This document shows, piece by piece, positions 4,001 through 8,201 of a stretch of DNA of 10,708 nucleotides (position 1 is its first letter; every line of letters starts with the position of its first letter). The stretch is from a virus: UHGV virus genome UHGV-0299297, one strand, 5' to 3'. Under the pieces are notes generated by a model, which was given only the letters and a program-made list of their open reading frames with translations, was not told the DNA's origin and ran no database searches. A program made the translations under genes and the position numbers.

Positions 4001-4604
4001 TTCGCGCCTGCTGCCGACCGGCTCATCACCGCTTGAAATTGCTGCCGCGAAAGCCTGTGCGGAAATTGAAAAAACGCCGGTCAGTATTCGTGAACTGTGG
4101 AACCCGGACACCTGCCCGGCAAATCTGCTGCCGTGGCTGGCGTGGGCCTTTTCGGTCGACAGGTGGGATGAAAAGTGGCCGGAAGCGACAAAACGCGCCG
4201 TTATCCGCGATGCCTATTTCATCCACTGTCATAAGGGTACTGTCGGCGCAATCCGGCGTGTTGTGGAGCCGCTCGGCTATCTGATTGAAGTGAGGGAGTG
4301 GTGGCAGCTCAACGAGGAGCCGGGGACGTTCCGTATCGTTGTTGGCGTGCTTGAGCAGGGTATTACCGAAGAAATGTATCTGGAGCTGGAACGTCTCGTT
4401 GCTGATGCAAAACCGGCGAGCCGCCATCTGACGGGACTGGCTATCAGTTTAAGTACAACCGGCAACATTTTTGCCGGAACGGGATGCTATCACGGTGACG
4501 CCCTGACGGTTTATCCCTACACCCCGGAGGCCATTATTGTCGGAGGGGATTATTTCCCGGCCTCGGTCATTCATTTAATTGATAACCTGAGAGTAAACGC
4601 ATGA
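3993..4604 (+). CDS. I: Baseplate protein gpI
   Basis: 203 aa. GGAGG ribosome binding site upstream. The stop overlaps the H start (ATGA). Confidence 0.85.
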   Translation: MSDSRLLPTGSSPLEIAAAKACAEIEKTPVSIRELWNPDTCPANLLPWLAWAFSVDRWDEKWPEATKRAVIRDAYFIHCHKGTVGAIRRVVEPLGYLIEVREWWQLNEEPGTFRIVVGVLEQGITEEMYLELERLVADAKPASRHLTGLAISLSTTGNIFAGTGCYHGDALTVYPYTPEAIIVGGDYFPASVIHLIDNLRVNA

Positions 4605-6280
4605 CAGTGAAATACTACGCCATTCTGACTAATCAGGGCGCAGCACGACTGGCTAACGCGACGATGCTCGGCAGTAAGCTGAATCTGACGCAAATGGCCG
4701 TTGGTGATGCGAATGGTGTATTACCGACACCAGACCCGGCACAGACAAAACTGATTAACCAGAAACGCATTGCACCGCTGAATCTTCTGAGTGTTGACCC
4801 TAACAATCAGAGCCAGATTATTGCGGAGCAAATTATCCCTGAAAACGAGGGAGGATTCTGGATCCGTGAGATTGGGCTTTATGATGATGAAGGCGTACTC
4901 ATTGCGGTGGCGAACTGCCCGGAAACGTACAAACCGCAGTTGCAGGAAGGCAGTGGTCGTACCCAGACTATCCGCATGATTCTGGTTGTCTCGAATACCG
5001 AAGCCATCACGCTGAAAATCGACCCGTCGGTGGTACTGGCGACCCGTAAATATGTGGATGACAAAATCTCAGAACACGAACAGTCACGACGACACCCGGA
5101 TGCATCGCTGACCGCAAAAGGTTTTACTCAGTTAAGCAGCGCAACCAACAGCACGTCTGAAACACTGGCCGCAACGCCGAGAGCGGTAAAGGTCGCGTAT
5201 GATCTTGCTAACGGGAAATATACTGCACAGGACGCGACCACAGCGCGAAAAGGTCTTGTCCAGCTCAGTAGCGCCACCAACAGCGATTCTGAAACGCTTG
5301 CGGCAACGCCAAAGGCGGTAAAGACAGCATATGACCTTGCTAACGGGAAATATACCGCACAGGACGCGACCACCGCGCGAAAAGGCCTTGTCCAGCTCAG
5401 CAGCGCCACTAACAGCACGTCAGAAACGCAGGCTGCCACACCAAAAGCCGTGAAGGCTGTATATGACCTTGCCAATGGAAAACAACCTGCCGACGCCACA
5501 CTGACCGCACTGGCAGGCCTTGCCACTGCGGCAGACAAACTTCCGTATTTTACGGGGAATGATACAGCCAGCCTGACAACCCTGACTAACGTTGGACGGA
5601 ATATTCTGGATAAAGCAAGCACACAGGCGGTTATTCAATATCTTGGTCTGAGCGATGCAAGTGGATACGTTGGACGCTGGCTGAATACCCGGGTTTTCAC
5701 CTCATCAGGTACGTACACCCCGACGCCAGGAACAAAACGGATCAGGGTCACAATAACTGGCGGCGGTGGCGGAGGGGGCGGCTGCAAGGCTACATCCAAT
5801 AATGAAACGTTTTTCGGTGCTGGCGGTGGGGCCGGTGGAACAATAATTTCAATAATTACCCCGACACAGAATAGTTATCCAGTCACTATCGGCGCAGGTG
5901 GGGCCGGTGGTGTTAGTGCGACGAACGGCACCAGTGGCGGGAATAGCGTATTTGCATCGTTAATTGCTCCTGGTGGCGCAGGTGGCGGGAAAGTGGGAGT
6001 TACAAATACAAACGGCGGTAACGGAGGTGTGCCGAGTACTGGCGATATCCGCATCACTGGTGGAAATGGAGGCGACGGTCAGTCCGGAAATATCAGCGTC
6101 AGCGGTGAAGGCGGAACATCGTACTGGGGTGGCGGTGGACGCGCAGGCGCTGGCGGTGGCGTTAGCGGTAAGGCATATGGTTCAGGCGGAGGTGGTGCAT
6201 ACGATGCCGGTTATAGCGGAACCAGTATGACGGGCGGGAAAGGCGCTGCAGGGATTTGTATTATCGAGGAGTTTGCATAA
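4601..6280 (+). CDS. H: Tail fiber protein gpH: conserved N-terminal baseplate-attachment region, central tail-fibre repeats, glycine-rich C-terminal domain
   Basis: 559 aa. The N-terminal ~150 aa resemble the P2 gpH-family collar/attachment region. The centre has three tandem ~44-aa repeats (SSATNS-SETLAATPKAVK-YDLANGK). The C-terminus is glycine-rich, including an 8-Gly run, and ends CIIEEFA. Confidence 0.9.
   Translation: MTVKYYAILTNQGAARLANATMLGSKLNLTQMAVGDANGVLPTPDPAQTKLINQKRIAPLNLLSVDPNNQSQIIAEQIIPENEGGFWIREIGLYDDEGVLIAVANCPETYKPQLQEGSGRTQTIRMILVVSNTEAITLKIDPSVVLATRKYVDDKISEHEQSRRHPDASLTAKGFTQLSSATNSTSETLAATPRAVKVAYDLANGKYTAQDATTARKGLVQLSSATNSDSETLAATPKAVKTAYDLANGKYTAQDATTARKGLVQLSSATNSTSETQAATPKAVKAVYDLANGKQPADATLTALAGLATAADKLPYFTGNDTASLTTLTNVGRNILDKASTQAVIQYLGLSDASGYVGRWLNTRVFTSSGTYTPTPGTKRIRVTITGGGGGGGGCKATSNNETFFGAGGGAGGTIISIITPTQNSYPVTIGAGGAGGVSATNGTSGGNSVFASLIAPGGAGGGKVGVTNTNGGNGGVPSTGDIRITGGNGGDGQSGNISVSGEGGTSYWGGGGRAGAGGGVSGKAYGSGGGGAYDAGYSGTSMTGGKGAAGICIIEEFA
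5117..5485 (+). repeat. Tandem direct repeat, period 132 bp, about 2.8 copies, inside H
   Basis: Copies begin at 5117, 5249 and 5381 (AAAGGNYTTGTCCAGCTCAGYAGCGC...). They are near-identical at DNA level, with a few substitutions. Confidence 0.85.
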
Positions 6281-6690
6281 TGAATGCGTCATATGCAGTT
6301 ATTGAAAATGGGATGGTTGTGAATGTCATTGTCTGGGATGGTGAGGATGAATTCACTGTGCCGGATAATCTGCAGCTCATTAATATTTCTGATATCAGTG
6401 AGCAGCCCGGAATCGGCTGGGCGTATTCAGACGGGGTATTTACTGCGCCGCTCCCTCCGGAACGTTCTCATGATGAACTGGTAGCTGACGCTGAACAGAA
6501 AAAACAGTCGCTGTTAGACGCAGCAATGGCCAATATCAGCGTGATTCAGTTAAAGCTGCAGGCCGGGCGCAAACTGACGCAAGAGGAAACTACCCGACTT
6601 AACGTTGTGCTGGATTATATCGACGCTGTGACGGCAACAGATACCAGCACCGCACCGGATGTCATCTGGCCTGAACTGCCGGAGGCGTAG
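6280..6690 (+). CDS. G: Tail fiber assembly chaperone gpG (Tfa)
   Basis: ATG at 6280 overlaps the H stop (TAATG) and has a GAGGAG ribosome binding site at 6266-6271. The track start at 6256 is a TTG and is not preferred. The gene follows H, as tail fiber assembly genes do. Confidence 0.85.
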   Translation: MNASYAVIENGMVVNVIVWDGEDEFTVPDNLQLINISDISEQPGIGWAYSDGVFTAPLPPERSHDELVADAEQKKQSLLDAAMANISVIQLKLQAGRKLTQEETTRLNVVLDYIDAVTATDTSTAPDVIWPELPEA

Positions 6691-6790
6691 ACCATTCAAT
6701 ATCTGACGTACCGGAAGTATCGGACCGCTCCGGTGCGTACAGGTAATCCAGCCACAAATTATATTGCGCCAGTACCTCAGACCTGCCGGG

Positions 6791-6991
6791 CTATTGCTTA
6801 GTGTTCATGTGTTTATTGGCCTGATTAATCAGTAGCTGTCTTTCTGGTCGTGTGGATCCTGCAAATCCTGAATGGTCGGAAATACCGCAGGCGGGCTGAT
6901 TGCCCGCCTTTTTTATCTGTTGTTTCATCCACTGACCAGCCAGGTCAAATAGCGTCTCATGCTCTGCACAACAGAAAATAGTTGCACCCAT
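6791..6991 (-). CDS. Hypothetical 66-aa ORF antisense in the G-FI gap; probably not a real gene
   Basis: From the ORF track only. No convincing ribosome binding site, several rare codons (CTA, ATA, AGA, CGA, GGA), it spans the forward terminator, and its start lies over the FI ribosome binding site region. Confidence 0.15.
   Translation of the reverse strand: MGATIFCCAEHETLFDLAGQWMKQQIKKAGNQPACGISDHSGFAGSTRPERQLLINQANKHMNTKQ
6889..6916 (+). terminator. Rho-independent terminator ending the H-G transcript
   Basis: Stem AGGCGGGC (6889-6896), loop TGATT, stem GCCCGCCT (6902-6909), then TTTTTAT. In the reverse direction the stem is not followed by a U-run, so it is forward-oriented. Confidence 0.7.
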
Positions 6992-7010
6992 TAACCACGG
7001 AGTTAAACGG

Positions 7011-8201
7011 ATGAGTGACTATCATCACGGCGTGCAGGTGCTGGAGATTAACGACGGCACCCGCGTCATTTCCACCGTATCCACTGCCATTGTCGGCATG
7101 GTCTGCACGGCCAGCGATGCGGATGCGGAAACCTTCCCCCTCAATAAACCTGTGCTGATTACCAATGTGCAGAGCGCAATTGCAAAGGCCGGTAAAAAAG
7201 GCACGCTGGCGGCGTCGCTGCAGGCCATCGCTGACCAGTCAAAACCGGTCACCGTTGTCGTGCGTGTGGAAGACGGCACCGGCGACGACGAAGAAACGAA
7301 ACTCGCGCAGACCGTTTCCAATATCATCGGCACCACTGACGAAAACGGTCAGTATACCGGACTGAAAGCCCTGCTGGCGGCAGAGTCGGTAACCGGTGTT
7401 AAACCGCGTATTCTCGGTGTGCCGGGACTGGACACCAAAGAGGTGGCTGTTGCACTGGCATCAGTCTGCCAGAAGCTGCGCGCTTTCGGGTATATCAGCG
7501 CATGGGGCTGTAAAACCATTTCCGAGGTGAAAGCCTACCGCCAGAATTTCAGTCAGCGTGAGCTGATGGTCATCTGGCCGGATTTCCTCGCATGGGATAC
7601 GGTCACCAGTACCACCGCCACCGCGTATGCCACCGCCCGTGCGCTGGGTCTGCGTGCCAGAATCGACCAGGAGCAGGGCTGGCATAAAACGCTGTCCAAC
7701 GTCGGGGTAAACGGTGTTACCGGCATCAGCGCGTCCGTATTCTGGGATTTGCAGGAGTCCGGTACCGATGCTGACCTGCTTAACGAGTCTGGCGTCACAA
7801 CGCTGATTCGACGCGACGGTTTCCGATTCTGGGGTAACCGTACCTGCTCTGATGACCCGCTGTTCCTCTTTGAAAACTACACCCGCACCGCGCAGGTGCT
7901 GGCCGACACGATGGCTGAGGCGCACATGTGGGCGGTGGACAAGCCCATCACCGCAACGCTGATTCGCGACATCGTTGACGGCATCAATGCCAAATTCCGT
8001 GAGCTGAAAACAAACGGCTATATCGTGGATGCGACCTGCTGGTTCAGCGAAGAATCCAACGATGCGGAAACCCTTAAGGCCGGAAAACTGTATATCGACT
8101 ACGACTATACCCCGGTGCCTCCTCTTGAAAACCTGACCCTGCGCCAGCGTATTACCGATAAATACCTGGCAAATCTGGTCACCTCGGTTAACAGCAATTA
8201 A
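7011..8201 (+). CDS. FI: Contractile tail sheath protein gpFI
   Basis: 396 aa, the P2 FI length. Sequence is recognisably P2 FI-like from the N-terminus (MSDYHHGVQVLEIN...) to the C-terminus. GGAG ribosome binding site 8 nt upstream. Confidence 0.95.
   Translation: MSDYHHGVQVLEINDGTRVISTVSTAIVGMVCTASDADAETFPLNKPVLITNVQSAIAKAGKKGTLAASLQAIADQSKPVTVVVRVEDGTGDDEETKLAQTVSNIIGTTDENGQYTGLKALLAAESVTGVKPRILGVPGLDTKEVAVALASVCQKLRAFGYISAWGCKTISEVKAYRQNFSQRELMVIWPDFLAWDTVTSTTATAYATARALGLRARIDQEQGWHKTLSNVGVNGVTGISASVFWDLQESGTDADLLNESGVTTLIRRDGFRFWGNRTCSDDPLFLFENYTRTAQVLADTMAEAHMWAVDKPITATLIRDIVDGINAKFRELKTNGYIVDATCWFSEESNDAETLKAGKLYIDYDYTPVPPLENLTLRQRITDKYLANLVTSVNSN

Follow-up and report, generated by a model that had tools for sequence, protein, structure and literature searches.

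The 320-bp gap between the tail-fibre assembly gene G and gene FI in this P2-like prophage is very probably a by-product of a tail-fibre swap, made up of the debris of two tail-fibre assembly genes and followed by a normal operon boundary. In all likelihood, no part of the gap is translated at present. One remnant derives from an inverted assembly gene (G') that lies within an imported tail-fibre cassette, and the other comes from an older, resident G gene, of which it preserves the 3' end. The two are joined at 6846|6847.

Layout of the G–FI gap

The window (the whole 10,708-nt stretch analyzed, from UHGV virus genome UHGV-0299297) covers the late region of a P2-like (Peduovirus) E. coli prophage, with the gene order V (2108–2743), W, J, I, H (4601–6280), G (6280–6690), FI (7011–8201), FII, and E onwards. 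With the end of G at 6690 and the start of FI at 7011, the gap spans 6691–7010 and has the length of 320 bp given by the first-pass annotation of this DNA. Among complete genomes, E. coli chromosomes come closest, at ~97% identity over 97% of the window, and the same H–G–gap arrangement was found in none of the deposited phage genomes. The best-matching E. coli prophages align only from 298, and positions 1–297 (the lysis-gene region) form a separate variable segment. The features in and around the gap are as follows.

5492–6846, plus strand: imported cassette, assigned by homology (glycine-rich C-terminal domain of H, G and a 3' piece of G')
6280–6690, plus strand: current tail-fibre assembly gene G, 136 aa (Pfam Caudo_TAP, positions 22–131 of 131, E 5.6e-22)
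6662–6846, minus strand: 3' remnant of the inverted tail-fibre assembly gene G', a pseudogene (homology, Pfam, PGAP)
6847–6888, plus strand: 3' remnant of the older resident G gene (RVDPANPEWSEIP), about 13–14 codons, of cargo-free or P2 type
6791–6991, minus strand: spurious 66-codon ORF with an ATG start, a chimera of non-gene segments
6889–6916, plus strand: intrinsic terminator of the V-W-J-I-H-G late operon, in its ancestral position directly after the old G stop
6917–6943, plus strand: predicted Ogr/activator site of P_F (alignment to the P2 RefSeq feature 'activator binding site; activation of pF promoter')
6985–7010, plus strand: predicted F-operon start (6985–6987) and 5'UTR (P2 RefSeq feature 'transcription start site for F operon')

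The GC content of the gap had been judged by eye to be lower than that of its flanks, and sliding 320-bp windows confirm a modest difference: the gap has a GC content of 0.484, whereas the window averages 0.557 (sd 0.031), so that the gap ranks among the lowest 1.6% of such windows. The minimum of the window (0.466, at 6238–6557) lies outside the gap, at the H/G junction inside the imported cassette. Save for one TAG, a single minus-strand frame is open over the entire gap because that frame is a gene remnant.

The imported tail-fibre cassette

The left part of the arrangement does not follow P2. Positions 5492–6767 are 92% identical to an unrelated, non-P2 myovirus-type prophage (L009, 3712–4987), and positions 6163–6844 are 90% identical to a lambdoid remnant (L008). 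P2-type homology restarts in BLAST at 6847, to the right of the cassette. The 90–92% identity to unrelated prophage types thus identifies 5492–6846 as an imported module consisting of a tail-fibre tip and its chaperone. The tip contains a Gly_rich_2 domain (Pfam) at residues 368–556 of H (window 5700–6277); with this glycine-rich domain, the receptor-binding end of H differs from the usual P2 H tip. Among the scar-sharing prophages (L001–L003 and L011–L015), the H proteins range from 559 to 721 aa. The length differences sit upstream of the common C-terminal cassette and probably reflect a varying number of tail-fibre repeat units (PF03406).

The ATG of the current G gene overlaps the stop codon of H (TAATG). 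PGAP treats this G inconsistently: it is annotated as intact in GN4143 (WP_094029835.1) and as a pseudogene 'missing N-terminus' in most identical loci. With the Pfam profile covered from position 22 to 131 of 131, the 136-aa G looks like a real gene with a divergent N-terminus.

The inverted G' pseudogene

The G' remnant keeps the final 60 codon positions and the stop of a gene of about 147 codons, and its 3' end overlaps that of the forward G by 29 bp, as in intact G/G' pairs. Its alignment with the intact 147-aa G' of Peduovirus magyaro covers the final 67 residues of that protein, codon by codon, and shows two differences only: a W codon changed to TAG at 6791–6793, and seven missing codons (a 21-bp deletion). 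The C-terminal translation reads ...ERQLLINQANKHMNTKQ*PGRSEVLAQYNLWLDYLYAPERSDTSGTSDIEWSTPPAVQAR*. When the TAG is read as W, the remnant passes the Pfam profile PF02413 (Caudo_TAP) with 26.4 bits against a cut-off of 22.1, over positions 71–130 of 131. A complete uninterrupted frame and the N-terminal part are absent. Because only 60 of ~147 codons are left, with an in-frame TAG and a 7-codon deletion, the remnant is a pseudogene fragment and no gene. The presence of a G' pseudogene at this locus is already known, since PGAP annotates the remnant as a pseudogene in the public records of identical E. coli loci.

The older G gene and the 6846|6847 junction

Homology to G' ends at 6846, and homology to the cargo-free E. 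coli prophage in OZ038535 and to Yersinia phage P37 begins exactly at 6847 in BLAST. From there it runs into FI at 90–95% identity. The short stretch between the junction and the terminator (GTGGATCCTGCAAATCCTGAATGG) is the end of an older G: the G protein of P37 ends in ...SRVDTANPEWPEIPQ*, and its counterpart in the window is ...RVDPANPEWSEIP. The 3' end of P2 G likewise matches window positions 6842–6889 at 88%. In the sublineage of the window, a 9-bp deletion has taken out the CAA-TAA stop of the old G; this CAATAA is kept in 4 of 9 aligned scar variants.

The junction between G' and the old G reads CTGTCTTTCTGGTCGTGTGGATCC. The 6846|6847 junction, the TAG and the 21-bp deletion are identical in all nine aligned scar variants, so the scar has a single origin. 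A microhomology, TTCTG(G)T(C), is common to donor and recipient at the junction; it is ambiguous and needs an extra loss of 4 nt.

The cargo-free junctions of Yersinia phage P37, Salmonella phage STYP1 and the E. coli prophages in OZ038535 and NCTC11151 are collinear with the window from 6847 at 90–95% identity, through the G 3' end, the terminator, P_F and FI. They differ in having an intact 175-aa G and a gap of 128–133 bp, whereas in the window ~13 codons of the old G stand behind a different G and a fragment of G'.

The operon boundary

In P2, the late operons VWJIHG and FI-FII-E-E'-T-U-D are transcribed from the promoters P_V and P_F (PMC3931495). The right part of the gap corresponds to the boundary between these operons, and the activity of its terminator and promoter is predicted here from homology and folding. 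The terminator scan places the hairpin at 6889–6909, with an 8-bp stem (seven G–C pairs) and a 5-nt loop, followed by TTTTTATCTG. Its predicted folding energy is −17.7 kcal/mol (z = −3.7). The element would work in the forward direction only, as the minus strand has no T-run after the stem. It is conserved in L-413C, STYP1 and P37 and is partly decayed in P2. A G+C-rich hairpin, a U-tract and conservation at the operon end are thus all present, as expected of a Rho-independent terminator, and the clean forward terminator reported at 6889–6916 in the first-pass annotation stands on scan, folding and conservation alike. Since the hairpin directly follows the G stop in cargo-free relatives, 6889–6916 can be assigned as the ancestral terminator of the V operon.

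The P_F stretch that follows is 97% identical to L-413C and related phages. Its last part, 6985–7010, is invariant among aligned relatives and contains the FI ribosome binding site (GGAG, 6999–7002). For an Ogr-dependent P_F, a TGT-N12-ACA element (PMC3931495) would be expected. No exact copy is found upstream of FI; the predicted activator site contains TGTTTCATCCACTGACCA, which matches with one mismatch (TGT-N12-CCA, 6921–6938), and the aligned position in P2 shows the same deviation. At one mismatch, the element is no more frequent than expected by chance, and the match alone is not significant. P_F was assigned by homology to the annotated P2 features, the motif being uninformative at one mismatch.

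Comparison with invertible tail-fibre segments

The donor side of the scar resembles the invertible segments of the Mu G / P1 C / e14 P type, such as that of Peduovirus magyaro (NC_041848). Its G and G' are convergent and overlap by 29 bp, as in the window, and the G' remnant is 81% identical to magyaro G' over window positions 6505–6846. Conversely, magyaro has an invertase, an alternative H tip and a pair of crossover sites, and the window has none of these. The magyaro sites are perfect 31-bp inverted repeats (L006, 2430–2460 and 4294–4324), which bound a 1.9-kb tail-fibre segment beside a serine invertase. The magyaro invertase matches PF00239 and has no counterpart in the window; its CDS, annotated with a length of only 164 aa, may carry a frameshift near the C-terminus.

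No ORF in the gap matches a resolvase, and PGAP annotates no serine invertase there in identical loci. Searches for crossover cores of the Gin/Hin type and for long inverted repeats, which do recover the magyaro sites, gave nothing above chance in the window, and no inverted crossover repeats were found in 4500–7100. The window contains a single AAACCNNGGTTT-like match, which is at chance level. At the QYLGL codons of H (5632–5657), 17 of 26 positions match the magyaro crossover site, a weak likeness that could be a recombination-site relic or the result of coding constraint. A convergent pair of intact G and G' genes with an alternative H C-terminus is absent as well, G' being a truncated pseudogene with no alternative tip beside it. 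Without invertase, crossover sites or alternative tip, the window holds no invertible switch of the Gin/Cin/Pin type, and its tail-fibre segment cannot switch.

Census and history of the scar

Counts from a survey of 5,426 complete E. coli genomes are listed below.

Genomes with the P_F–FI region: 1,697
Genomes with homology reaching back to 6848: 42
Scar carriers among the 42: 34
Non-scar genomes among the 42: 8 (four inspected, all four cargo-free with an intact 175-aa G)

An identical gap in most P2-like phages would have marked it as ordinary intergenic sequence; the gap is found in only 34 of the ~1,700 E. coli genomes with the P_F–FI region. In most other P_F–FI loci, which have Z/fun-type cargo, homology begins at the terminator. 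Among 60 evenly sampled E. coli hits, 19 begin homology at ~6920 and have a recombinase gene adjoining P_F; these lack both the terminator and the old-G remnant.

Convergent G/G' pairs are found in invertible tail-fibre segments. The arrangement in the window probably arose when a minimal, cargo-free ancestor (H–G–terminator–P_F–FI) replaced its H receptor-binding end, together with the chaperone belonging to it, by a cassette of a phage with such a pair. The left crossover would have fallen inside H, near 5492. The right crossover, at 6846|6847, would have been illegitimate: the inverted G' of the donor, broken in its middle, would have been fused to the final ~14 codons of the resident G, so that 185 nt of G' and ~42 nt of the old G were retained as dead sequence. 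Subsequent decay would then account for the TAG and the 21-bp deletion, plus the 9-bp deletion in the sublineage of the window. In the resulting prophage, late V-W-J-I-H-G transcripts would be expected to run ~226 nt beyond the G stop and to end at 6889–6916, and the Ogr-dependent P_F (~6917–6943, start ~6985–6987) would drive FI onwards. The order of these events is a reconstruction from the segments. Tail-fibre swaps and invertases have been published for this hotspot (bioRxiv 10.1101/2024.10.15.618418), in keeping with such an exchange.

Alternatively, the scar may have formed in two steps, which is possible but unlikely. A whole invertible segment (G, G', an alternative H tip and a serine invertase) would have entered the 3' end of the old G, and a later deletion would then have taken the 5' half of G', the alternative H tip and the invertase. 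Complete invertible cassettes do occur at this position in many P2-like prophages, as shown by Peduovirus magyaro and by the 19 of 60 sampled loci with a recombinase beside P_F. Deletions of this kind also occur, as indicated by an independent truncation in L009 in which a G' remnant is fused to a remnant of the invertase helix-turn-helix. However, the known invertase-bearing P2-like prophages join at ~6920 and have neither the terminator nor the old-G remnant, so they cannot be the parent. Moreover, no intermediate with an invertase adjoining the old-G remnant was found among the inspected genomes of the 42 complete E. coli genomes with homology from 6848, and a two-step history needs one event more. 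The census, with no invertase intermediate, thus favours a one-step swap into a cargo-free ancestor over acquisition followed by deletion. Both histories would yield the same product, and sequence alone does not reveal in which order the events took place.

The L009 truncation (4882–5075, E. coli Br_190_kylling, beside ybhB-bioA) keeps 123 nt of G'. It lies at the end of a different prophage type, and the decay of its cassette is independent.

The untranslated region before the terminator

The ~200 nt that separate the G stop from the terminator are most simply read as a passive 3'UTR (~226 nt) of the late H–G mRNA. The first-pass annotation had suggested a small RNA ending at the terminator; it is very unlikely that this stretch is such an RNA or that it has a regulatory role as a 3'UTR, for instance as an antisense to the tfa genes of co-resident prophages. 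Transcription of the late H–G mRNA would be expected to include the region at its 3' end and to stop at a strong terminator. The region also folds more stably than shuffled sequences (z = −3.1), and in antisense it shares 80–90% identity with the intact G'/yfdK-type genes that other prophages carry. However, the promoter scan of 6200–7400 found no promoter-like site on either strand, and an Rfam scan of 6500–7200 at a permissive threshold gave only a DUF2693 RNA at 19.9 bits, far below its threshold of 81.3. At least the outer stem of the fold (inverted repeat I5, pairing 6690–6705 with 6862–6877) is explained by the presence of two homologous Tfa C-termini in opposite orientation, which partly accounts for the above-random folding. 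The region is also decaying by indels and substitutions in the manner of a pseudogene.

Even less probable is that the late H–G 3'UTR, through ~156 nt antisense to G'/yfdK-type genes, acts as an antisense RNA or as a recombination anchor, roles suggested by complementarity and expected transcription only. G'/yfdK-type tail-fibre assembly genes are common in other E. coli prophages. If stable or processed to the terminator, such a 3'UTR could hinder the tail-fibre assembly of co-induced competitor phages; as an anchor, the G' fragment could support further exchange of tail-fibre cassettes by homology.

The 66-codon antisense ORF

The antisense ORF at 6791–6991 was described in the first-pass annotation as lacking a ribosome binding site and using rare codons, and both points were confirmed. 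No Shine-Dalgarno sequence is present in the 20 nt upstream (TCCGTTTAACTCCGTGGTTA), and the codon adaptation of the ORF to the window's own genes is 0.545, which is below the 11 real genes (0.665–0.809) and within the range of 36 spurious antisense ORFs (0.577 ± 0.081). Conservation of the ORF, which would have marked it as a small cargo gene, was not found: in five of eight close scar-sharing relatives, it is shortened to 54, 49, 11, 11 and 11 aa by indels in the P_F region and a point change.

The sequence of the ORF is fully explained by its parts, namely the antisense of the F 5'UTR, P_F, the terminator and the old-G remnant, followed by 17 in-frame codons of the G' pseudogene. With the F start mapped from P2 to 6985–6987, its ATG (6991–6989) falls in the antisense of the F-operon 5'UTR, and its stop is the premature TAG of the G' remnant. 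It is the only ORF of at least 60 aa in the gap and is intact in some close relatives; nevertheless, a real small cargo gene is highly improbable here, and the ORF is effectively refuted as a gene. Neither this ORF nor a 43-aa ORF on the plus strand has a match in Pfam or PADLOC.

The Z/fun cargo site

The interval between G and FI is the Z/fun site of P2-like phages, a mixed hotspot for defence genes, tail-fibre swaps and invertases (bioRxiv 10.1101/2024.10.15.618418; PMC13586616). Homology of P2 to the window ends at the P2 G stop (L020, 1271) and restarts at the hairpin (L020, 3523; window 6887), which places the fun(Z) insertion within a few bases, after the G stop and before the terminator. 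Four relatives read CCGCAATAAATACAGGCGGGC at this point, the uninterrupted, cargo-free form; in the sublineage of the window, the only change at this point is the 9-bp deletion that took out the old stop. The Z/fun site was probably never occupied in this lineage. With the insertion point uninterrupted and the extra sequence lying upstream of it, the latter is debris from the cassette swap and not lost defence cargo.

Between the G stop and P_F, no intact accessory gene was found with Pfam or PADLOC, only spurious ORFs; the earlier statement that the site carries no defence system or cargo gene is thus correct. The suggestion that the ~200 nt are a remnant of excised cargo does not hold. A lost defence or moron gene at the Z/fun insertion point would fit a documented hotspot and the somewhat low GC of the gap; it is nonetheless extremely improbable and already refuted by segment-by-segment homology, as all bases of the gap can be assigned to G', the old G, the terminator or P_F, the insertion point is contiguous in relatives as in cargo-free prophages, and PADLOC detects no defence-like protein in the gap.

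In this prophage, the tail-gene hotspot of P2 is genuinely empty, and there is no defence system or small gene to seek in it. Empty hotspots are rare (PMC13586616), in agreement with the ~42 of ~1,700 P2-type loci that are unoccupied in complete E. coli genomes. The locus further offers a clean worked example of how swaps of tail-fibre modules leave debris of both donor and recipient; otherwise its significance is small and lies in correct annotation.

In P2 itself, the same interval is flanked by the G 3' end and by the hairpin, P_F and FI, as in the window, but 2.25 kb (fun(Z) and a second terminator) lie between the G stop and the hairpin, where the window has nothing. By annotation, the second P2 terminator lies on the left side of fun(Z). 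The P2 copy of the ancestral hairpin (L020, 3523–3555) has a mismatch and a wobble pair in its stem, and the old terminator appears to be decaying in P2, where it no longer ends the V operon.
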